Of a DNA stretch of 64,000 nt, positions 2,915 to 16,605 are shown piece by piece (position 1 is the stretch's first letter; the number at the start of each line of letters is the position of its first letter). The DNA is from Scenedesmus sp. PABB004. Its lineage: Eukaryota. The notes beneath the pieces are model-generated. The model was not told the origin of the DNA, ran no database searches, and was given only the letters and a program-made list of their open reading frames with translations. Where the stretch lies: assembly GCA_014905635.1 (NCBI GenBank), contig CM026547.1:2170001-2234000 (forward strand), given 5' to 3'. The position numbers and the translations under genes are program-made.

Positions 2915-5584
2915 TCAGCACAGCGCCGCCGTGGCGGCGGGCGCCTCGGCCAGCGCGGCCGCGAGGCGGGCGTGGACGGCGGCGTGCAGCCGCGCCGCCG
3001 CGGCGCGCGCGGGCGGCGCGAGGCGCGGGTCGGCGGCCCCAAGCTGCGGCCACTCGCAGGCCAAGAAGAGCAGCAGGTCGGCGGCGAGGCCGTAGCCGGC
3101 GACTGCGGACGCCCAGCACCCCAGCACCTCGTCCGCCGCTGCGCTGCGCGCCGCCTCGAGCGCGGCGCCGTGCAGCACGCCCACGGGGTCGGGCAGCGGC
3201 GCCGCCGCGAGCGAGTCGGACAGCCCGCCGAGGCCGGCGCCCGCGCCGCCGCTGGCGCTGCCGGCGAGGGCGGGCAGGCCGCGCGCAAGGCGCAGCAGCT
3301 CCACCGCGGCGGCCATGAGCTGCTCCAGGTCGGCCTGGCTCGCGGCGGCGAGCACCGACGACACGCCGCCGCCGCCGCCGCCCTCCTGCTCACCGGCGCC
3401 GCCGTCGCCCTGCTCGCCCGGCAGGCAGACCGCGTGCACGAGCTGCAGCGCCAGCAGCATGAGCGCCACCGCCTCGCCCTGCTGCGCGGGCGGCGGGGCC
3501 GCCTCGTTGCCGCCGGCCGCGTCATTGCGGGCCAGCAGCGTGGCACAGCCGCGCACGACCTGCACCAGCAGCTGCGCGCGCTGCGCGTCGGTGGGCGGCT
3601 GCGCTGCGAGGCCCGGGCCGAAGGCGTCGAGCGCCAGGCTGCCGCCGCCGGCGCCCGCAGCCGCGCCGCCGGGCCACAGCCACGCGTCGCCGGGCGGCGC
3701 CGGCCCCGCGGGGGCGAGCTGCGCGGCCGCCGGGTGCGGCTGCTGCTGGCCCAGCCCCTGTGGTGCGGCCGCGCCCGGCCACGCCGGCCGCGCCCCGGCG
3801 CCCTGCAGCACCGCCGCCGCGCGCGGCTCCACCAGGCCGCTGCTGGCCTTGCTGCTGCCGCCGCTGCTGCTGCGAGGCGCCGCGCCGGCGCCGGGCGTGT
3901 GCACCACCACAAAGTCTCCCTCCATCGAGTCGCTCAGCGGCTCGCCCTCGGCGTCGCGCGGCGGCGGCGTGCGGGCGAGCGGGTGCGTGGCTGCCGGCCG
4001 CAGCACCACGCCGCCATGCGGCGGCGGCGGCGGCGCCCGCTGCTGCTGCGGCTGCTGCTGCCAGGGCTGCTGCGCCGGCGGCTGCTGCTGCGGCGGCTGC
4101 TGCTGCAGGTGCAGGCTGGGACGGGGCATGCCGGCGGCGGCCCTGTTATTGACGTCTGCTGCCGCGGCCGCAGCCGTGGCGGCGGCCGCCGCCTGCCGCA
4201 CCGCCGGCGGCAGCGCCGCGGCCGGCGGCGCGTGCGCCACGGGCTGCGACGGTGGCACGCCGGCGGAGGGGCCTGCGGCGCGGCGCGGCGCGGCGCGGGG
4301 GCAGCGGCGTTGAAGCGCGTCCCGGCGCCCGCCCGCCGCGGCCCGCACGCGCGGCCCGCACGCGCGGCAGCGCGCGCACCGGCGCCGCTGGTGAGGAAGG
4401 GGTGGGAGAAGAACTCGTCAAACGTGATGCGCTCCACGGGGTTGCGCTGCAGCAGGCGGCCGAGCAGCGCCTTGCAGGGCGCGCTGAGGTGCGCCGCGAC
4501 CGCGTCGGGCAGGCGCGCCTCGCCGCGCTCGATGTTGCGCAGCAGCTGCATGTGGTTGGACCCGTTGAACGGCGGCCGCCCCACGAGCAGCTCGTAGAGG
4601 ATGGTGCCGATGGACCACAGGTCGGCCTGCGCCGCGGCGGCGGCGCCCGCGCCGCTCGGTCGGCGGCCGCGCTGCGCCGCGCCCCCGGCAACGCCGCCCA
4701 CCGCCCTGCCGCCGCCGCCGCCCCCTGCCGCCGCCGCCTGCCGCCTGTCACCGCCGCGTCAGCGCGCACCTTGGCGTCGTACTTGTGAAACTGCAGGATC
4801 TCTGGCGCCATGTAGAGCGGCGACCCGCACAGCGTCTCGGCGAGGCCCTGCGGCCCCAGGCTGCGTGCAAAGCCAAAGTCGGCGATCTTCAGCAGCGGCG
4901 TCGACGACGCGTCGCTGAGCAGCAGGTTCTGGGGCTTGAGGTCGCGCTGCGGCGGCCGCCCGGGCGGCCGCGTGGGGCGGGGCTGAGCTGCTGGCGCCGC
5001 CGCGCCCGCGGCCGCGGCTGCGGCTGCTGGCGCCGCTGCTGGCAGCGGCATGCTCGACCGCTCCGCGCGCGGGTCCCGCACGTGTATGACGTTGTGCCGG
5101 CGCAGCTCCTTGAGGCCCTCTGCGAGCTGCAGCAGGAAGTAGCGCGCGGTGGCCTCCGACACGGCGCGGTAGCGGCGTATGTAGTGCCCCAGGTCCCCGC
5201 CGGCGCAAAACTCGAGCACGATGAACAGGCGGCTGTGCACCTGCGCCCGCGCGGCAGCGGCGGCGGCGGCGGCCGCAGCGGCGCGCGTCGGCGTGTGCTG
5301 GCGGCGGGCCCTGTGCCGGCGGCGGCCGCGCGGCGGCGGCGGCGGCGGCGCACCCGGATGAGGTCGAGCAGGCACACGATGTTGGCGTGCTTCGTGTGGT
5401 TGAGCACCGCCACCTCGGAGGCCAGGCTCTCCTGCAGCTTCTTGTTGAGCTTGTCCATGTTGATCTCCTTCACCGCCGCCACCTGCCCGCTGCTGCGGTG
5501 CCGCGCGCGCCAGACCTTGGCAAAGCTGCCGGCGCCGACCTCCGCCTCCAGAATCCAGTCCCCCGCCTCGCGCTGGGGCTCCAT
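2915..5584 (-). CDS. ATG1: ATG1/ULK-family autophagy Ser/Thr kinase (multi-exon)
   Basis: MEPQ...[84 protein letters not shown]. Also an AIM-like [10 protein letters not shown] and a plant ATG1-type C-terminal region ([26 protein letters not shown]...LLLFLACE). ATG at 5584-5582, TGA at 2917-2915. Confidence 0.92.
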
Positions 5585-5790
5585 GACGGCACCCCGCCTC
5601 AACCGGCACCCGCCTCAACCGACGCCCATGCCGCGCGGGGCAGCCCGGCTTGTCCCGATGCTGTGCCCAGGCGGATGGCCGGGGCGGGCGCCCGGGGCGC
5701 GCAGCGGGCACCCAGGGACGGTGCCGGTACCGAGTGGCAGCGCCCGGGCTGGGGCGGGTTGGGGAAAAGGGCAACGGGGAGCGCGAGGGG

Positions 5791-5906
5791 CGGCCGTCCT
5801 TGTGGTCCTTCTGCCTGTTCAGGAACCAGTCGGGGATCTTGTACTGGCGCGGGTTGGCCACGATCGTCATCAGCTGCTCCAGCTCCTCAGCGGACAGCTC
5901 GGCGCG
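5791..5906 (-). pseudogene. RPS18: Isolated internal fragment of 40S ribosomal protein S18 (uS13)
   Basis: Translates [39 protein letters not shown], the recognisable middle of eukaryotic RPS18. No other RPS18 exons are visible on either side. Confidence 0.85.
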
Positions 5907-6089
5907 TGTTCGACCGCTGCTAGCGTGCTCCCCGGCCTCGCTACCGCCGTGGGAGCGCCGGCCGGTGGTCTCAACACCGGCTGCTGGGGGGATGGGGGCT
6001 GCCGGGGCGCCCCGGGGGGCGCCCCGGCGCCGCGGGCGCGCGGCGCGCGTGCGCGGCGCTGCCACCGCCGCGCGCGCGCGCCGCCGCCG

Positions 6090-6336
6090 CCAACACCGAC
6101 CATGGGCATCCTCTGATCGCCGGCCGCCTGAAACAGGCCACAGCGGCGCGAGGCATGACGGTTTGGGACCGGCCCGTCGGTCGGTGCCCCGCGAGGGGTC
6201 CGCCCCACCCGGAACGGGTGACAAGGCGAGAAACGCACGCGCACACGCCTGACCTAACCTGGCAACACAACACAACAGCAAGAGGCCTTTTAACGTCCTG
6301 CCCAGGACGGAGAGCGCAGCGCACCGCACACGCCGC
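6090..6336 (-). ncRNA. Candidate Fanzor omegaRNA scaffold
   Basis: Directly 3' of the Fanzor stop and less GC-rich than its surroundings. Complementary pairs: hairpins at 6294-6309, 6206-6220 and 6187-6198; 6094-6101/6179-6186 (8 bp) enclosing 6157-6161/6174-6178, 6118-6122/6144-6148 and 6126-6138. Function is inferred from position only. Confidence 0.45.
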
Positions 6337-8143
6337 TCACGCCCGGGGGTCCACCGCGGCGGCGGCCGCCTGCCGGAACGCGCCGGCGAGGCGCGCGCCG
6401 CCCGCCGTGCCGCGGCCGCCGCGCAGCAACTCGTGCAGCGTGAGCGCGCAGATGTTGCGCGCCGCGTTGTCGTCGCGCGGCGCGACGACCGTGCACCCGG
6501 GGCACTGCACCAGACCATAGATGCCCCGCAGCTTCTCCACGCGCGCCCCGCAGACAGAGCAGGTGACGCTCGTGCGGTGCTCGTCCATGAGCACCGCGGC
6601 GACGCGCCGGCGCGCATAATAAGTGCGCAGCAGCGCCAGCAGCGCCTGCCGCGGCGGCCCCGGCCCCGAGATGCAGCCCCCCATGCCCAGGCTGGCGTCC
6701 CCGATGCCCAGCACCACCGCGGGCAGGTCGGCGGGCAGGCGCGCGTGCTGCCGGACGCGCCCGCGCACAAAGACCCGGCCGTATGCAGTCAACTGAATCA
6801 CGGCATGCAGCGCGCGCTGCTTCAGCCCGTGCTTCCGCAGCCGCCACGCACACTCTGCACGGCACGCAAGCAAGCTACATGCGAATGCATTGTCCAACAC
6901 ATGATGCACCCGGCCGTTGCGCCACGCCCCGGCGGCGGCGACGCTCGTGCCCGAGTAGGCAGGCACGCGGTTCAGGCAGGCATGCACGCAGTCGCCGCCG
7001 CCGGGCGGGCGGCGGTCGTACCGCCCCGGCCGCCCCGGCCGCCCCTGCTGCCACAGGCGGTGCCGCTCGATCCCGCGCGAGTCGCGGTGCGCGGCGGTCT
7101 TTATTCGGATGATGCGCTCCGCCTCGTAGCGGCGGCCGTGGTCGCCGCGGTGGCGCGGCGCGTTGGGGCAGCGCCGCTGCGCGATGCGGCGGTGCGCGAC
7201 GCGCGTGCAGCCCGGGCCCTGCCGCCAAGTCGCGGCACAAACCATGCGGGCCCGGCCCGGGTCGACTCCGACGACGCGCACGCCCGCGTGCACGGCCGCG
7301 GCCGCGCCGCGCAGCGCGTGCCCCGGCGGCAGGCCCTCCACGCCGCGCAGCTCGCACGGGTCGAGCGGCAGCGCGTCGAGCGCCGCCTCGTCGGCCACGC
7401 CGTGCGGCGCCAGCGCGTCACAGAGCAGCCGCCGCGCTGCCGCCGCGCCCGCGCGGTGCTCTGCCGCGCGCTGCGCCGCCTTGGCGGCGCGCGACTGCTG
7501 GCCGCGGGGCGGGGCGGGGTCGGTGGCGCCCTCAACGCGCACGCGCACGTGCAGCGCCGCCAAATCAAACGTCACCGAGCCCGCGAAGCGCGTGTTGGCG
7601 TGCAGCACGCCGCGCGCGCGCCCGGGGCGCCGGCCAAAATGAAAACATTCATCCCAAACGGGATCGTAGCCCCCGCCCTCTTGGGTCGGCGGTGGCGGCG
7701 GCGGCGGCGGCTGGCCTGCCGGCTGGCCCCCCGCGGGCGCCTTCGCCTGGGGCGCGCGCAGCGCAACATCCAGCGCCTGCATGCCCGAGGTGGACAGGTG
7801 CAGGTGCTGGGTGCCGTACTTGGGCACCGGCGCCAGCGTGAAGGCGCGCCGCTTGGGCAGCGCCACGCGCGCGGCGTGCCGCGAGCGCAGGCCGCGCAGC
7901 ACCTTGCACGCGCCCGTGACCGCGACGAGCGCGTCGGGGTGCTGCCCCGCGCCGCCGGCGCGCTGCGGCGGCTGCCCGCCGCCGCTGCGGCCGCCGGGCG
8001 GCGCCGGCGCCGCGCCGGCCGCGGTCGCCGCAGCCAGCACCGCCTCGAGCGTCGCGCACACCGCGTGGCGCCAGCCGGCCGAGACATCGCGACGCAGCGC
8101 CGCGACAGCCGCCGCCGCCTCCTCGGGCGTGCGCGGCGCGGGC

Positions 8144-8179
<36 letters not shown>

Positions 8180-11100
8180 TGCTGGGCCGGCGGCGCCGGC
8201 GCAGCGCGACCCTGCGCGGCCGCTGCGGCGGCCAGGTGGCCGCGCGCGGCCGCCAGGTGGCCGCGCGCTGCCGCCAGTCGGGCGCCGCAGTCGCCCAGCA
8301 GCCGCGCGCCCTGGTCGCGCGCGGCGCGCGCGGCGTCCGCCGTGCGGCGGGCCGCGTCCGCGTCGGGCGCCGCCGCCGCGCCGTGCGGTCGCGCGAAGCG
8401 CCGCTGGTGCTGCACGAGCGCCGCGTCGCGCTCGTGGTGCTGCGCCATGGCAGCCTGCCACTCCGCCTCCACGGCTGCGAGGTCGGCCCCCACCGTCGCG
8501 TCGCCGGCGGCGGTCAGCGCGGCCAGCGCCAGCCGCAGCCGCTCCGCGGCCGCGGCCGGCAGCGCCGCGCCCGGCCCTGGCCCGGCGCCGCGCCCGGCGC
8601 GGCGCCTTGCCCCCGGGCGCGGAGCAGCCGCGCCTCCGCGACGGCCAGCCGGCGCCGGAGCGCCGCCGCGTGCGCGTCCTTGCGCTGCAGGCGGCGCAGC
8701 CGGTTGCGCGCGTGGTCGGGCGGGCCCGTCATACCTCCCTGGACCGCAGCGCGGCTGGCGACCTCCCGCTGCAGGTCCTTGAGGGGTTCCTTGCGCAGAC
8801 GCACGGCCGCCTCGCTGGCATCCACGGCGGCGCGCAGGCGCTGCACCGCCGCCTCGAGCTTGCCCAGCTCGCGCGCCCGCTGCAGCTCGCGCAGGCGCGG
8901 CTCCTGGGCGCTGGCGTCCAGCAGCTTGGGGGGCGCCGGCGGACGCTGGCCGCGGCTGCGGCTGCTGCTGCTGCTGCCGCTGCCGCTGCGCCCGCTGCTG
9001 CCGTCCATCGCCTCTGCCAGCGACTCGACGGCCGCCGCGAGCGCGCCGGCCGACGCCGGCTCCGGGGCCGCCCCGAGCGACGCGGCGCGGCGCAGCATCG
9101 CCTCCAGCGCCGGCCGCGCCGCCGCGCCCTGCTGGGCTGCCAGCGAGTCCGCGAGCCGCGGCGCGCAGGCAGCAAACATGTGCTGCTGGCCGAGCATGAC
9201 GACAAAGTCGCGCGCGACGCGGCGCGCCATGGCGTCGGCGTCGCCCTCCCGGTACGCCAGGCCCTCGAGCTGCCGGGCCAGCGCCGCGCGCCAGGCGTCG
9301 TAGGCCGCGTCGTGCTGCTGCCGCGCCGCCGCGCCCGCGCCGTGCGCCAGCGGCTCCGGCGGCTGCGGCACGAGCGGCGCGCCCCCTGCCTGCGCGCCCG
9401 CGTCCGGCGCGCGCGGCATGCCGCTCCGCGCCCAGTCGAGCACGCGGCCGTGCTTGCCGGCCGCCTCGTCCGACTCCCAGCGCTGCAGGCCGGGCGTCGC
9501 CTGCGCCCCTGCCGCCTGGCGCGGGCGCGCGCGCCGCCTCGCCGTCCGCCGCCGGGAAGGGCTGCTCCAGGTGCAGGCGCATCCGCGCGAGCATGTCGCG
9601 CATCATCGCCATGGCCAGCCGCAGCCGGCCGGCGTCCTGGCCGTCGCCCGCCGCCGCGGGCACCACGCCCTCGCCCGGCTGCAGCACGCCCTGGCGCTCC
9701 CAGAGCAGCGGCGACGCGCTGTACAGCAGCGCCGCGCCGCCGGCGATGAGGCAGTCGCGCGCGGCGCGGCTGGGCGTGCCGGCGCAGCCCGCGGCAAACC
9801 ACGCCTGCAGGGCGGCGGCGTCGAGCGCCTTCTCCAGGCGCTCGCCGTCGGCGAGGTGGAGCTGCAGGTTGGTGTTGTACAGCTCCGCGAGAGGGTTGAC
9901 GAGGTCGTGGTGCAGGCGGCCTGTGACCCAGGCCGGCAGGGGCACGCGCTGCAGCTCGTTGACGCCGCAGGCCTGCTCCAGCGCATGGCGCAGGTCGCTG
10001 GACAGGCCGCCGCCAACGCGCCGCCAGTTGCCCTGGCTAAAAAAGTTGATTAGGTCGTACACGAGCGGCGCGCCGCCGCACGCGGCCTGCAGGTAGCAGG
10101 CGCACGCGGGCGGCGGCGGCGCCGGCTGCTGGGCCTGCTGCGCTGCAGGCGGGGGCTGGGGCTGCTGCGGGCCCTGCTCCTGCGCCGCCGGCTGCGGCGG
10201 CGGCTGGCGCGTGTCCAGCCCGTACAGCCGGCTGCGCAGCGGGCGGGCGGGCGGGCGGGCGGCGCGACTCGGCGGGCGGCGCGGAGGAGGGGGCGCAAAG
10301 CGCGCGGGCGCGCCCCACCCGCGCGCGCGCGCACCTCGCCCCATACACGAGCGCCACGTGGTGCGCGTCGCGGCCGAGGATGCCCAGCCGGCTGTAGGCG
10401 CACACGAGCGCCTCGAGGTAGGGGACCACCTCTGGCTTGCGCACGGCGCCGCGCAGCGCGCAGACGCGCACGCCTGAGGCGGGCGGGCGGGCGGGCGGGC
10501 GAGGGCAGGTGAGGGGGGCGCGGGCAGGGCGCGGGGCGGCGGCGGCGCTGGGTGCCGAGAGAGCGGCCCGGCGGCCCGGCAGCGCGCCGCGCGGCGGGCA
10601 CACTCACGCATGCCAGAGCCGGCCGCTGCCTTTTTGGCCTGCTCGGTCCGTTTCTTGCTGCGCTTGGTGAAGTGGCGCGGCAGCGCCTGCTGCTGCTGCC
10701 GCCCTGCCTTGTCGCCCGCCTCGGCCGCCGCTGCACCGCGCGCGGGCGAGGCACGCCCCGACGCCTCGTCGGCGCCGCGCGAGCGCTTGCGGCGGCCGCG
10801 CGGCGCCGCCGCCGCGCCGCCGCGCGAGCGCGCGCGGCCGCCGCCGCGCGAGGGCGTGCGGCCGCCGCGCGTCGCGGCCTTGGCGCTGCCGCGCGAGCGC
10901 GCGCGGCCGCGGCCGCGGCTGCGGCGCTGCGCCGCGTCGGCGCCACGCGCGCGCTTCGCCGCCGGGCCGCCCTCCTCCTCATCGCTGCTGGCCGCGGCGC
11001 TGCCGGCGGACCAGCCGACGCTGGCGGCGGGCGCCGAGAGCACCGCCGCCATCGCCGCCGCGCGGGCGGCCTCGCCGCGGGCCTGCGCGTGGCGGCGCAG

Positions 11101-13386
11101 CGCCTCCCAGTCGGCGCCGCTCACGGGCTGCGCCGCGCGCTCGGCGGGGTCGATGCCGCGCGCGGGCGGGGGGCCCGGGGTGCCCCCGCCGCTGCGCGCG
11201 CCGCTCGTGCCGCCGCCGGTGCTGCTGCCGGCGCTGCCGCCGGCGCTGTCGCTGCGCGCGCGGCTCGTGCCGCCGCCGCTGACGCTGCCACTGCGCGCGC
11301 CGCTCTGGCCGCTCTGGCCGCCGCCGCTGGCGCCGCCGCCGCCGCGCGCGTGCTTGGCGTCGTAGCTCGCGCGCTGCTTGGAGCGCCGCACGTCCTCGTC
11401 GGACGTCCCGGCCGCCTCGGCGCGCGCCTTGGACGCGTCGAGCTCCGCGCGGCGCTCCACCGGCTTCTCCCACGCCGCGTCGATGGCGGCGGCGGTCGCG
11501 GCGCGGCGGCGGCGGCGGCTGCTGCTGCTGCTGCTGTCGCTGTTGCTGGTGCCCAGCGGCGCCGCGGCGCCGTTGCCCTTGCCGCGGCGCTCCTTGCGCC
11601 CGAGCTGCTGCGGCTGCAGCGGCTGCAGCGGCTGCAGCGGCTGCAGCGGCTGCCGCGGCTGGCTCGCCGCCGGGCCGCCCTCCTCGTCGCTGCTGTCCGC
11701 GGCGAGCTCCGCGGCGCGCGGCGCCGCCTCCTGCAGCCGCTGCTGCGCCGGCGCGCCGCGCGGCGGCTCGCGCACCTGCTGCAGCTCCGCCGGCGCGCCG
11801 CGCGGCGGCGGCCTGCGTGCCGGCACCACCGCCGCCCAGTGGTTGAGCGGCAGCGGGTTTTGCGCCCCGAGCACGGGCGCAAACTCCGGCGCCGCGGCGG
11901 CCGGCAGCGCGAGCGCCACGAGCCGGTTGCCCTCGCTCGCCTGGAACGCGTCGCCCTGCTCCTGCAGGGCGATGAGGAGCGTGTCAAGGCTGTAGACGTC
12001 GGTCAGGAAGACCAAGTCTGCCAGGCGCATGCACAGCGCCCGCAGCTCAGCCTCGCTGGGGTAGCCCCCGGCCTCCAGGTCTCGCGCCAGCTCCTCCACG
12101 GCGTCCGCGCGGGCCACGCCGAGCACATCGCGCCAGGGCACGCCGCTCGGGTGCAGCTGGTCGCTCAGGCCCAGCTCGCGGATGAGCTCCACCGTCCGCG
12201 ACCGCAGCTCGCCCGCCTGCTCGTCCAACATGTCCAGCACGTCGGGTTCGAAACTGCGCAGGTCGTGGGTCGGCTCCTGCAGCTCCGCCGCCTCCAGCAT
12301 GCGCAGCACGGCAATCGCAATGAGGGAGAACCCGCACAGGCCGTTGGCGCGGCCGTGCACGAGCGCGTACCCCTTGTCCTCCAGCTCGCGCTTCAGCAGC
12401 GCGAGCTGCGCGCCGGTGCACGTGCCCGCCGGCGCCATGAGCTTCGGCGGCGCCCGCGCCGGCGCGCCGCGCGGCGCGGCCGCCGGCGGCTGCCGCTGCT
12501 GCGGCGCCACGGGCGGCGGCGGCGCCGGCGCCGGCGCGCCGCGCGGCGCGGCCGCCGGCGGCTGCCGCTGCTGCGGCGCCACGGGCGGCGGCGCCGCCGG
12601 CGCCGGCACCGGCGCGTCGTCCGGCCGCAGCGCCGGGCTGCCGCCGCCCCAGCCGCTCCCGCTGACGCTGCCGCTGCCGCTGCTGCTGCTGCTGGGCCTG
12701 GGGCTGCCCCTGCCGCCACCGCCGAGCGCGGCTGCGCGGCCAGGGCCCGGCCCGCGCGCGGCGGGCAGCGCGCCGCCGCCGCCGCCGCCGCCGCCGCCGG
12801 GGCGGCGCGCGCGCGCCACGGTGCGCCACTCGGCCGCCGCGTCGCTGGGCTGCCGCCCCTGCTGCGGCGGCGGCTGCGGCGGCTGCGGCGGGCTGCGGCT
12901 GCGGCTGCGCCCGCCGCACGGGGCAGGCGCGGCCGCCGGCGGCTGCCGCTGCAGCGGCGGCGGCACGGGCGGCGGCGGCGCCGGCGCCGGCGCGCCGCGC
13001 GGCGCGGCCGCCGGCGGCTGCCGCTGCTGCGGCGCCACGGGCGGCGGCGGCGCCGGCGCCGGCACCGGCGCGTCGTCCGGCCGCGGCGCCGGGCTGCCGC
13101 CGCGCCAGCCGCTCCCGCTGCCGCTCCCGCTGCCGCTCCCGCTGCTGCTGCTGGGCCCGGGGCTGCCCCTGCCGCCACCGCCGAGCGCGGCTGCGCGGCC
13201 AGGGCCCGGCCCGCGCGCGGCGGGCAGCGCGCCGCCGCCGCCGCCGCCGCCGCCGCCGGGGGGGCGGCGCGCGCGCGCCACGGTGCGCCACGGCGGCGAC
13301 GCGTCGCTGGGTTGCTGCCCCTGCTGCGGCGGCGGCTGCGGCGGGCTGCGGCTGCGGCTGCGCCCGCCGCACGGGGCGGGCACGCC

Positions 13387-13419
<33 letters not shown>

Positions 13420-14000
13420 AGGGTCGCCAAGCGTAAACACCGCCGCCTGCTCATCGGGCGTGAACCCGATGTCCCAAAACCCCGGCGGGGTCTCGGGAGG
13501 CGCGTGCTGGGCGCGGTGCCGCGACGCGGCCTGCAGCGCGGCCGGGGCCAGCGCGTGCGTGCACGGGAGCAGCATCATGGTGCCCGGCGCCGGCGCGCCC
13601 CAGGTGGAGAGGGCGCCGTAGAAGTCGCGGCACTGAGCACAGTCGTGCCCCGGCAGGTCCTGGCGCGCCGGCCCGCGCACCACCTCCTGGTACGCGAAGC
13701 CGCCGGCAGCGGGCGGCTGCCGCGGCGCCGACGCGCCCGCGCGCTGCTGCTGCTGCTGGTGCTGGTGCTGCTGCTGGTGCTGGTGCTGGTGCTGCTGCTG
13801 CGGCGGCGGCGGCTGCAGCCAGTCCTCCTCCTGCCCGCGATACACGCGGCGCCAGCCGGCGCCCGCCGGCGGCGGGCGCGGCTGCGCCGGCGCCGCCGGC
13901 TGCGGCGCGGGCTGCGGCGCGCCCCAGTTCAGCACCGGCAGCGCGAAAAGGCCGGCGGGCGCCACGGGGTGCGCGGGATCGATCCGCCTGAGCTGTCCAT
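6337..14000 (-). CDS. Fanzor1 (TnpB-like RuvC nuclease) with long N-terminal extension carrying CtIP/Sae2-like and OTU-like domains; spliced, with apparent frameshifts
   Basis: C-terminal motifs: [27 protein letters not shown] (RuvC-I D, 7263-7261), VVLGIGD, MDEHRTS (RuvC-II E, 6582-6580), CSVC...CPGC zinc finger and RDDNAARNI (RuvC-III D, 6474-6472). GT-AG introns at 10607-10474 and 10334-10232. The start is uncertain; the ATG at 14000 needs a frameshift. Confidence 0.85.
12445..13375 (-). repeat. Coding tandem duplication (~450 bp period) in the Fanzor N-terminal extension
   Basis: Two copies of [13 protein letters not shown]...[10 protein letters not shown]...[18 protein letters not shown]...PDDAPVPAP, plus shorter [20 protein letters not shown] subrepeats. 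Confidence 0.85.
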
Positions 14001-14334
14001 CGCGGCGCGCGCCGGCTTGGGCTGCCGGTAGCGCGCGCGCCCCAGTCGCCCGATCGACCGGCTGTGCATCGCGGAAGGCTCTCGCCGGGCGCGGGTGACC
14101 GCTGCGTGCCTCCGACCGTGAACGATCTGGTGCCCAAGCGCCGCGCACCGGATTGTGCAGACGGTCGCGGCGTGCCGCCTGAACCGCCGAGCAGCCCCGG
14201 CCCGGCTGGTGCCCACGCTCATGCCCGTCGCCCTGGCCAGACCCGTGGCCGCCGCCCCGCAGCCGAGCGCCCGCCCAGGCGCGCCCCGCACCGCCGCTGC
14301 CCGCGCGCCCCGCTCCGCGCGAACGCGCGCCGCC

Positions 14335-16605
14335 ATGGCCGAGGCCAACGGCTCCGGCGATGCGCCGGTGCGCGGCGGGCCTGACGACGCCGGCGCGCGG
14401 CCGGCGCGGCGGCGGCAACCGCAGCAGCAGCGGCGCCGGCGGCAACCGCCCGCGCCGCCGGCCGCGCGCAGGTCTTCCTGATCTTCGGCCGCTCCGGCTG
14501 GATCGGCGGCCTGGTGGGCGACCTGCTGAAGCAGCAGGGCGCCAAGTGGGAGTACGCCACGGCGCGCCTGGAGGACCGCACGGCGATCATCGCCGACATT
14601 GAGCGCGTGAGCCGCGGCGGCGGCGCGGCGGCGCGGCAGCGAGCGCGGCGCGGCAGCGAGCGCGGCGCGGCAGCGAGCGCGGCGCGGCAGCGAGCGCGGC
14701 GGCGGCGGCCCGCCGCCCCCGCGGCGCCGAGCCGCGCCGCGCGCGCGGCTGCCCCGCACGCAGGTCAAGCCCACGCACGTGCTCAACGCGGCGGGCCTCA
14801 CCGGCCGGCCCAACGTCGACTGGTGCGAGACCCACAAGGTGCGGCGCGTGCTGCCCGGCGCGCGCGGCGCGCGGCGCGCGGCTGCGCCGGCGCGGCAGCA
14901 GCGGCGGCGGCCGCGGCGGCGGCGCGCCCGCCCACACACGGCCTGCGCGCGCCGCGCGCGCGCAGGTCGAGACCATCCGCTCCAACGTCATCGGCTGCCT
15001 GAACCTCGCCGACGTGTGCGCGTCGCGCGGGCTGCACATGACCTACTACGGCACCGGCTGCATCTTCCACTACGACGAGCACTTCCCCCAGGGCAGCGGC
15101 AAGGGCTTCAAGGAGAGCGACAAGCCCAACTTCACCGGCAGCTACTACTCCTACACCAAGGCGCGCGGCCAGGGCCAGGGCCAGGGCTCGGCGCGGCGCG
15201 GCGCGGCGGGCTGGGGGAGGGCACCGCGCGCAGCGCCGCGCGGGGCGGGGCGGAGCGGGGCGGGCGATTGCGACGCCGCGACGCGTCCGCGCCGCGTCGC
15301 CGCCGCGTCCGCGCGGGCGCAGGCGATGGTTGAGAGCCTGCTGAAGGAGTACCCCAACGTACTCACGCTGCGCGTGCGCATGCCGATCGTGGCCGACCTC
15401 ACCTACGAGCGCAACTTCATCACCAAGATCATCAAGTACGAAAAGGTGCGACCCCCTGCCTGCAGGGGGGGGGGGGGGGGGCTAAGGGGGGGCACTCCGG
15501 CACGCGCCGGGGGAGGAGGAGGCTGGGAGCGTGCGGCGCACAGCCGCGCGCGCGGGGCGCGGCCGCGGCGTCGCGCTGCGGCGGTGGGCGAGCAGCCGGC
15601 GGCAGCGGCGCGCGGGCGCGCGCGCGGGCGCGCGCGCGGGCCGAGCGCCGCCGGCGCCGCGGCAGGTGGTGGACATCCCCAACTCGATGACCGTCCTGCC
15701 CGAGCTGCTGCCGCTGTCGATCGAGATGGTGCGCGCGCCGCGCCGCGCCGCCCGCGCGCCCCCGCTCCCGCGCACGCAGCGGCGCGCGCGCCACTTCAGA
15801 CTTTGAGCCCCGCGCCCCGCCGCCCCTGCCCCGCGCCTCCCCCTCCCTTCTGCCCCTGCCCCCAGGCCAAGCGCAAGCTCACGGGCATCATGAACTTCAC
15901 TAACCCCGGCGTCGTCAGCCACAACGAGGCGCGGCGCCGCGGCGCCCCGCGCACGCCCGCGCATGCCCGCCGCCCGCGCACGCCCGCCGCCCGCGCCCGC
16001 GCACGCCCCGCACCGCGCACGCGCCGCGCACCAGCGCACCAGCGCCCGCGCACGCCCGCGCGCCGCGCCCGAGCGCGCCCCCCCCCCCCCCCCCCCCGGC
16101 CCCGGCCGGCCGGCGCGTGCGCAGATCCTTGAGCTGTACAAGCAGTACATCGACCCCGAGTTCACCTGGTCCAACTTCAGCCTTGAGGAGCAGGCCAAGG
16201 TCATCGTCGCGCCGCGCAGCAACAACCTGCTCGACACACAGCGCGTGAGACCCACCGCGGCGCAGCCGCGGCGCACGCGGCGCCGCGGCTGCCCGGCGCG
16301 GCGCGGCGAATTTTGTTGCCTGGCGCGGCGCGCGGCGCGCGGCCCAGCGTGCGCCGCCGGCGCCGCGCCGCAGATCTCTGGCGAGTTCCCGGAGCTGCTG
16401 CCCATCCGCGAGTCGCTCATCAAGTACGTGTTCGAGCCCAACGCCGCAAAGGTGCGCGCGGGGTCGGCTGCGCCGCCGGGGGCGGCGAGGCGCGCGGGGC
16501 GACGCGGGCCGGGCGCGCCACGCCCCGACCCGCCGCGCCGCGCCGCCGCCGCGCCCGCAGAAGGACGAGGTGTGCGCCGCCGTGCGCGCGATGCGCGGCC
16601 GCTGA
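14335..16605 (+). CDS. Nucleotide-rhamnose synthase 3,5-epimerase/4-reductase (NRS/ER, UER1-like), multi-exon
   Basis: FLIFGRSGWIGG, VKPTHVLNAAGLTGRPNVDWCETHK, YYGTGCIF, PNFTGSYYSYTKAMVE (YxxxK), LRVRMPI, VVDIPNSMTVL, NFTNPGVVSHNEIL, VIVAPRSNN. TGA at 16603-16605. Confidence 0.93.

Follow-up and report, generated by a model that had tools for sequence, protein, structure and literature searches.

Does Scenedesmus sp. PABB004 carry a single gene that joins a Fanzor1 nuclease to a SAE2/CtIP repair domain, or do the two lie side by side in DNA that is poor in stop codons? The question is raised by the minus strand of a 64,000-nucleotide (nt) stretch of contig CM026547.1 (assembly GCA_014905635.1, positions 2,170,001 to 2,234,000; here called the window, with positions counted from its first letter). 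An initial annotation had described there one polypeptide in which a Fanzor1 is fused to a CtIP/Sae2-like domain and an OTU-like protease. Our reading is that the locus may be one intron-bearing chimeric gene of ~2,500 codons, running on the minus strand from ~14.2 to 6.34 kb and linking SAE2 and Fanzor1; we put the probability of this at about 0.4.

Fanzor and TnpB nucleases are thought to aid their transposons through breaks that are repaired by homologous recombination, and CtIP/Sae2 promotes end resection by Mre11-Rad50. We know of nothing, in eukaryotes, on the steering of Fanzor-type breaks away from end joining. A natural Fanzor-CtIP/Sae2 fusion, if true, would be the first case in which an RNA-guided nuclease is tied genetically to the choice of repair pathway; it would make repair steering directly testable and would mirror an engineering trick of genome editing. 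If the frame is accidental, the locus shows that gene models from algae of extreme GC content call for caution, and it would still hold a divergent, apparently constrained Fanzor1 with host-type introns.

Two recognizable domains on one strand

The 3′ end of the locus is, judged by its sequence, a genuine Fanzor1/TnpB-type nuclease gene that is apparently intact and evolved under coding constraint. Pfam family PF07282 (Cas12f1-like_TNB) matched this end with an E value of 4.4e-10 (40 bits; cut-off, 26.3), NCBIfam TnpB models matched it at E values of ~5e-5, and the best sequence match among solved structures, mimivirus Fanzor2 (9b0l_P; E = 0.0028), covered the zinc ribbon/RuvC-III region. The body begins with a helical N-terminal part, followed by the strand RAFTLAP (7828-7848), a RuvC-I motif GVDPG with its D at 7261-7263, and a RuvC-II strand GIGDAS (6691-6708) without Glu. 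The relocated Glu is found in MDEHRTS (E at 6580-6582), ahead of a zinc finger (6493-6561) composed of CSVCG (6547-6561) and CPGC (6493-6504) in a CxxC..CxxC arrangement, and the RuvC-III D lies at 6472-6474. An intact D, E and D (at 7263, 6582 and 6474) and a CxxC-CxxC finger had been named in the initial annotation, and all proved exact, the three codons being GAC, GAG and GAC. The active site of Fanzors is described in PMC10530073 as rearranged, with an inert residue at the canonical RuvC-II Glu position and a relocated Glu before the zinc ribbon, and this Fanzor-type RuvC-II is present at the locus.

An HMMER search against 1.84 billion representatives returned only 26 proteins at E ≤ 1e-3 for the Fanzor end. 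These relatives were metagenome proteins, the top one being 627 amino acids (aa) long and 36% identical (E = 1.5e-19), and the nearest of them sit on contigs of ≤5.3 kb, with one exception on a 134-kb contig. The alignment with them was colinear from RAFTLAP through GVDPG, GIGDAS, DEHRTS and the zinc ribbon to RDDNAARN. Residues G463 and G468 (in the GIGDAS strand), D502, E503, T506 and S507 were invariant, DPG aligned too, and C510, C513, C529, C532, R538 and D539 were near-invariant in 27 sequences. Introns were sought inside the Fanzor 3′ part, at 6700-7000, and were unneeded, the alignment with the relatives being colinear there. An AlphaFold (AF2) model of the Fanzor part built from 27 sequences had a mean predicted local distance difference test (pLDDT) score of 59.8, with values of 74-90 over most of residues 200-556. 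When Foldseek was run against the PDB with this model, ranks 1 to 4 were taken by Spizellomyces Fanzor1 (SpuFz; E = 2.3e-6 to 4.6e-6, probability 1.00), followed by Fanzor2, Cas12f and TnpB, with 15 matches at E ≤ 0.001. The template modeling (TM) score was just ~0.27, and this low value is due to the 236 of 583 residues with a pLDDT below 50.

The SAE2/CtIP C-terminal domain near the other end of the locus is, by its motifs, likewise real, and its family signature is complete. Pfam SAE2 (PF08573) matched a 277-aa query (~13381-14211) in two stretches with an E value of 1.8e-12 (48.7 bits; cut-off, 19.8). The proposal of a CtIP/Sae2-like domain upstream of the Fanzor was thereby borne out, with CxxC, SRHR and TPPGFW kept. 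A word-based search yielded three homologues, a 262-aa fungal protein and two metagenome proteins, none of which had a TnpB domain. In the alignment with these three proteins 22 columns were invariant, including QEVVR, CxxC, SRHRA and TPPGFW..F; among the invariant positions were C41, C44, S80-R81-H82-R83 and T91-P92-P93-G94-F95-W96. The TP in TPPGFW is the position of the cyclin-dependent kinase (CDK) site in CtIP/Sae2.

Exons, introns and frame switches between the domains

Both domains lie in a stop-free run of 2,749 codons on the minus strand (6340-14586), in the frame named f0. Base composition was 75-84% G+C in every 2-kb bin across the window. Over all six frames of the window there were 988 stop-free runs with a mean of 129 codons; 45 of them had at least 500 codons, and the length of an open reading frame (ORF) is therefore a poor guide to genes here. 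Five runs reached 1,000 codons and the f0 run alone reached 2,000, the runner-up having 1,172. The openness of f0 by itself is weak evidence in DNA of 80% GC, yet the run is an outlier.

Coding frames were mapped by GC content per codon position; a codon-usage scan, which is rough (one of its three training stretches was mis-framed), serves only to corroborate this map. By both measures one coding segment follows another on a single strand from ~13990 to 6340, without a non-coding stretch in between. Because coding periodicity is found everywhere, there is no room between 13990 and 6340 for a terminator, a promoter or an untranslated region (UTR). The two GT-AG introns proposed at the outset (134 and 103 nt) are present, follow the host consensus and join three coding segments in phase (Table 1). 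The first junction codon takes one base from exon A and two from exon B, the second takes two from B and one from C, and both match the frames with coding signal in B and C. Introns 1 and 2 share their consensus with the introns (GTGCG../..GCAG) of the neighbouring minus-strand gene, starting at 5584, which we read from its translation as a ULK/ATG1-like kinase; Pfam backs the kinase domain only. Exon A holds the SAE2 domain, a tandem low-complexity repeat, a Cys/His domain and a long Ser/Gly/Arg/Lys-rich linker. It is free of stops up to the consensus GTGAGT donor at its end, and hence it most simply continues into exons B and C.

Downstream of exon C, the coding signal switches to frame f1 and then back to f0. 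The product of this f1 island is helical or coiled-coil-like, and the same DNA read in f0 gives Arg/Gly/Ala-rich filler. No GT dinucleotide occurs between 9630 and 9476 or around 8640-8520, which excludes GT-AG introns at both switches; as for GC-AG introns, only one of 55 nt fits at the first switch, and it was considered unlikely. The f1 signal begins ~25 codons ahead of the first f1 ATG (9420), and the f0 signal resumes ~40 codons ahead of an ATG at 8448 and also ahead of the f1 stop (8514-8516). Since the signal precedes their first ATGs, the f1 island and the Fanzor segment look like continuations and not like separate ORFs. The two switches compensate, +1 then -1, ~950 nt apart, as expected if translation of the Fanzor part depends on a start codon further upstream. 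They are most simply read as a +1 and a -1 shift in what was once a single ORF, arising from real mutations or from indels in the assembly at G/C runs.

The OTU-like protease of the initial annotation corresponds to the Cys/His domain of exon A, and here the assignment found no support from Pfam, NCBIfam, PHROGs, the PDB or fold prediction. For a 224-aa piece, Pfam at E ≤ 10 gave no OTU match (the sole match was FAD_binding_3, at E = 0.21), NCBIfam and PHROGs gave none of any kind, and phmmer found 0 PDB sequences at E ≤ 10; there were 0 longer homologues among 8,000 candidate proteins. An AF2 model made without an alignment had a mean pLDDT of 38.9 and was unusable; its order of elements (strand, Cys, helix and, in the last strand, His) is compatible with a papain-like fold but is not trustworthy at that confidence. 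In a language-model feature search of the Atlas, 17 of 30 matches fell in a cluster set, 34% of whose members carry PF02338 OTU (score, 0.90). This is a weak lead, and membership of the OTU family is unproven.

The in-frame duplication upstream of the Cys/His domain was scored at 1577 by Tandem Repeats Finder, with 92% matches. The Lys/Arg patch at the end of exon A may serve as a nuclear localization signal (NLS), a role suggested by the N-terminal NLSs that PMC10530073 reports for Fanzors. Exon C had no match in Pfam, NCBIfam or PHROGs and no usable match in the Atlas, and no homologue of it was found among proteins of 713-2270 aa (0 of 8,000 candidates).

Table 1. Coordinates of the features of the locus, listed from the 5′ end of the proposed gene
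Feature	Position	Strand	Basis or remark
Candidate first coding exon, from ATG 14222	14149..14222	minus	Speculative; one of eight frame-consistent combinations of ATG, donor and acceptor
Candidate 5′ intron, 161 nt, GTGCGC..CAG	14148-13988	minus	Would splice the ATG-14222 exon into the long frame
Exon A, f0, ~1,127 codons	10608..13987	minus	Third-position GC 0.92-1.00; codon-usage scan picks f0
SAE2/CtIP C-terminal domain	13462..13698	minus	Pfam PF08573 and motif positions
Tandem duplication, in frame	12473..13417	minus	Period 456 nt (152 codons), 2.1 copies, Pro/Gly/Ser-rich
Cys/His domain	11800..12471	minus	NGLCGF 12328-12345, LNHWAAV 11827-11847; strong coding signal
Lys/Arg patch, NLS-like, end of exon A	10630..10665	minus	Read from sequence
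Intron 1, 134 nt, GTGAGT...C-rich tract...CAG	10474..10607	minus	Phase fit
Exon B, f2, 46 codons	10335..10473	minus	Codon-position GC, codon-usage scan
Intron 2, 103 nt, C-rich, GTGCGC...CAG	10232..10334	minus	Phase fits the return to f0
Exon C, f0, ~237 codons	9520..10231	minus	Gln/Pro-rich stretch, then a globular-looking domain; third-position GC 1.00 to ~9526
f1 island, ~307 codons	8575..9495	minus	Coding signal in f1 (GC phase, codon usage); stop-bounded ORF 8517-9602
Fanzor1 body, f0	6340..8574	minus	Pfam, NCBIfam, alignment, AF2, Foldseek; stop TGA 6337-6339
3′ flank, expected site of an omega/f RNA	6080..6336	minus	Lower-GC, GU-rich stretch at ~6240-6290; metagenome contigs continue through
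uS13/S18 ribosomal-protein fragment, exon-like	5790..5905	minus	Pfam PF00416 positions 44-80 of 128, E = 1.4e-7

One gene, several or a dead one

Several observations weigh against one chimeric gene. The strand antisense to the locus also has stop-free frames of more than 1,000 codons, and it is for this reason that an open frame counts as weak evidence at this base composition. No in-frame ATG occurs in f0 between 14420 and 13600, the first lying at 13581, within the SAE2 domain, so that a further predicted 5′ exon and intron are needed for a start ahead of it. As assembled, the long frame translates filler over the ~1 kb (9495-8575) that is coded off f0. The Fanzor body had been said to be in frame with the upstream domains; this holds for the stop-free run of 2,749 codons and for the in-phase introns and fails over the stretch coded in f1. 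No guide-RNA signal was found in the 3′ flank: the RNA fold of 6080-6345 was no better than those of shuffled sequences (z = 0.26), and none of the 5 Rfam matches came near the gathering score. The locus is also single, with no second copy in the window.

Further, no relative with SAE2 or Cys/His upstream was found in 158 loci or in the protein searches. The loci of relatives were sought with a 4-sequence alignment; tblastn of the whole frame and the f1 ORF against the 158 loci compared gave 2 matches, both to the zinc-ribbon region. In a scan of metagenomes 224 of 595 stretches were confirmed, the best with 42% identity over 85 residues and all of them distant TnpB-like, and in a viral scan 161 of 409, equally distant.

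The alternative that survives best, though we consider it rather unlikely, is that two adjacent units share the strand: a host or older gene bearing the SAE2 domain and the unknown domains and, downstream, a Fanzor1 element, the openness of the frame being a by-product of stop-poor DNA of 80% GC. The Fanzor 5′ boundary would then fall either near 8.6 kb or somewhere from 10.2 to 11.8 kb, and the frame switches would mark junctions. The position of the SAE2 domain speaks for adjacent units and against a fusion. It is extreme C-terminal in all three homologues, with at most ~40 residues beyond it, which fits a separate upstream gene whose end is lost or not visible here; at the locus, by contrast, more than 2,300 codons without a stop follow the domain, and the Fanzor nuclease lies ~2,300 codons downstream. 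Before the domain there is room for only ~130 residues, of low complexity, and no coiled-coil N-terminal region was seen. At the other end, ATG 8448 is in good context (MAQHHERD), stands just downstream of the f1 stop and would yield a 702-aa Fanzor, near the ~600 aa of the Fanzors described in PMC10530073, whose N termini are variable or disordered. Exon C and the f1 island showed no similarity to a full-length Fanzor1 relative, as adjacent units would also suggest.

Metagenome DNA bears on the same question. All 8 sequencing runs returned for the locus were metagenome DNA, with no RNA run among them. Contigs of 160-900 nt from four runs, 96-100% identical to the window, give separate coverage of the Fanzor part, exon C, the Cys/His domain and SAE2. 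No contig in the four runs bridged SAE2 to Fanzor or crossed either frame switch, and contig joints with sides of 21-31 nt in low-complexity DNA were discounted. Among the contigs listed for sample X1, 32 of 1,268 positions deviated from the window in those lying at or below 8550 (6079-8550), compared with 3 of 1,497 in those no lower than 8777 (8777-13730); in sample X2 the more divergent zone reached 10155. This step could come from two haplotypes, from extra copies of the 3′ half or from mixed strains. The greater divergence of the 3′ part hints at another history or more copies for that half, in line with adjacent units, but strains are mixed in the comparison and the contigs cannot rank copy number. 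Nor do adjacent units account readily for a stop-free SAE2 exon that runs into a consensus donor and splices in phase, for the coding periodicity that leaves no space for a gene end and a new promoter, or for the coding signal ahead of the candidate internal ATGs.

An unlikely third reading holds that the locus is a chimera that lost its function recently. It would then be a non-autonomous transposon, or a gene, in decay, containing a captured SAE2 exon and uS13 fragment, a Fanzor1 and two frameshifts, and would make no functional fusion protein. Two frame switches without introns and the lack of an in-frame start before SAE2 are what such decay would leave. The uS13 fragment also fits. It lies isolated between the Fanzor stop and the kinase ATG, ~430 nt downstream and on the same strand, with host-like codons, and no other S13 piece was found in the 10 neighbouring ORFs. 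It may be a captured or relic gene piece and, as such, indicates that the locus has received pieces of genes, in line with a chimera that arose by capture. Helitrons are known for the capture of gene fragments. Green-alga Fanzor1 genes are described as riding non-autonomous Helitron2 elements (PMC3627910, PMC10530073).

Against inactivation, codon periodicity stays strong over the 7.6 kb apart from the two switches, no catalytic or zinc residue has been lost, and the switches restore the frame. Polymorphism between the window and closely related metagenome contigs was biased to third codon positions: of the variant places listed, beyond which there are 115 more, these account for 10 of 15 in the Fanzor ORF and, for exon C, 6 of 9 (pooled binomial P ~9e-4). 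A variant of the Fanzor tail in runs X5 and X6, from two studies, has 9 nt in place of 102 nt (6375-6476, minus strand); the net difference of 93 nt keeps the frame. Around the locus no transposon ends, terminal inverted repeats (TIRs) or terminal hairpins were found, low-complexity repeats alone flanking it, and no other transposon gene was present in 99 ORFs of at least 300 aa across the window.

A polycistronic mRNA with two or three ORFs (SAE2 with the unknown domains, the f1 ORF and the Fanzor) is very improbable: nuclear transcripts of this kind are on record for green algae (PMC7896298, PMC11291117) and ATG 8448 comes 66 nt after the f1 stop, but the stop-free upstream frame offers no end for a first cistron, leaky scanning would be implausible across more than 1,000 codons of an ORF that has many AUGs, and coding signal crosses the supposed gaps between ORFs.

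One chimeric gene is the likeliest of these readings. The single polypeptide first proposed is plausible: the stop-free exon A, the in-phase splicing and the absence of room for a promoter or UTR favour it, and the f1 segment, the missing in-frame start and the lack of a second example count against it.

The surroundings of the locus offered some further observations. At its 3′ end, the TGA stop is part of a splice-donor-like GTGAGC; a short hairpin, CGTCCTGGGCAGGACG, and the GU-rich stretch with the lowest GC of the locus come after it (6240-6340, minus strand), and here the transcript either ends or has another intron. TGTAA, the poly(A) signal of green algae, was useless as a gene-end marker, with 1 occurrence in 64 kb against 3.3 expected. 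At the 5′ end, a palindromic CCATGG (14333-14338) supplies each strand with an ATG where the locus meets, head to head, a plus-strand neighbour that begins at ~14.34 kb and reads from its translation as a rhamnose-synthase-like (NRS/ER) gene. The plus-strand ATG of the palindrome opens MAEANGSG.., in a frame that differs from that of the neighbour's conserved VFLIFGRSGWIGG exon. Within the same neighbour, 14628-14695 is a perfect tandem array of four copies of the 17-nt unit GCGGCGCGGCAGCGAGC. Other genes of the window are of the intron-containing eukaryotic kind and include protein kinases, malic enzyme, phospholipase D motifs, OHCU decarboxylase/HIUase, an Obg GTPase and a Cas1p-type acyltransferase.

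A possible function, and known systems compared

If the locus is one gene, its product would have the Fanzor1 nuclease as its C terminus, preceded by a disordered linker with the NLS-like Lys/Arg patch. Further upstream would come two domains of no known family, of which one has its Cys and His in a papain-like layout; a complete SAE2/CtIP C-terminal domain would lie near the N terminus. The parts would be transcribed and translated together, and the frame switches would reflect indels of the assembly or else two mutations that cancel each other within a linker the protein can do without. Nuclear import would fall to the Lys/Arg patch, and the Fanzor module, with a putative guide RNA, would cut a target. 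The tethered SAE2 domain could then recruit or activate Mre11-Rad50 for end resection, which would lead to repair by homologous recombination, the route by which TnpB-type elements restore themselves at emptied sites. Such a "cut-and-steer" nuclease, in which Fanzor1 and CtIP/Sae2, perhaps with a deubiquitinase-like domain, act in one polypeptide to channel the break into homologous recombination, would help the element to home or to be retained, or else serve a co-opted host function. We regard this function, proposed by analogy, as quite unlikely. No natural fusion of a Fanzor with Sae2, CtIP or OTU was found in the literature searched, the supplementary tables of the Fanzor census lying outside its scope.

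The closest known systems are the Fanzor1 genes of green algae, such as Chlamydomonas CrFNuc/Fanzor1c, which is described as carried on Helitron2 elements (Bao and Jurka 2013, PMC3627910; Jiang et al. 2023, PMC10530073). The locus shares with them the split RuvC D..E..D, the Gly for Glu in GIGDAS, the relocated Glu in DE.RTS, CxxC..CxxC and RD.NAARN, as well as host-type introns and a Lys/Arg patch upstream, and its predicted fold is nearest to SpuFz. In contrast with those genes, its frame extends ~1,700-2,000 codons further upstream to include a SAE2 domain, no transposon ends, no extra copies in the window and no conserved 3′ guide RNA were found, and its closest relatives are metagenome fragments of 36% identity.

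Compared with CtIP, Sae2, Ctp1 and COM1 (PF08573), the locus has the full C-terminal signature, QEVVR, CxxC, SRHR and TP followed by PGFW..GF. It differs from them in that the domain is not C-terminal, more than 2,300 open codons following it, and in that the N-terminal coiled coil was not seen.

Engineered fusions of Cas9 to CtIP raise homology-directed repair and use an N-terminal CtIP fragment. They are alike in concept, since an RNA-guided nuclease is tethered to a part of CtIP that promotes resection. Those constructs are made in the laboratory and carry the N-terminal part of CtIP, whereas the locus is a natural frame, known from sequence alone, with a C-terminal SAE2 domain.

Bacterial IS200/IS605 TnpB cuts the site that its element has vacated, and homologous recombination restores the element (bioRxiv 10.1101/2023.03.14.532601, 10.1101/2023.11.20.567912). 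As described there, this homing is bacterial, relies on host recombination and has no repair factor fused to the nuclease; it is this system that, by analogy, provides the rationale for the mechanism proposed here.

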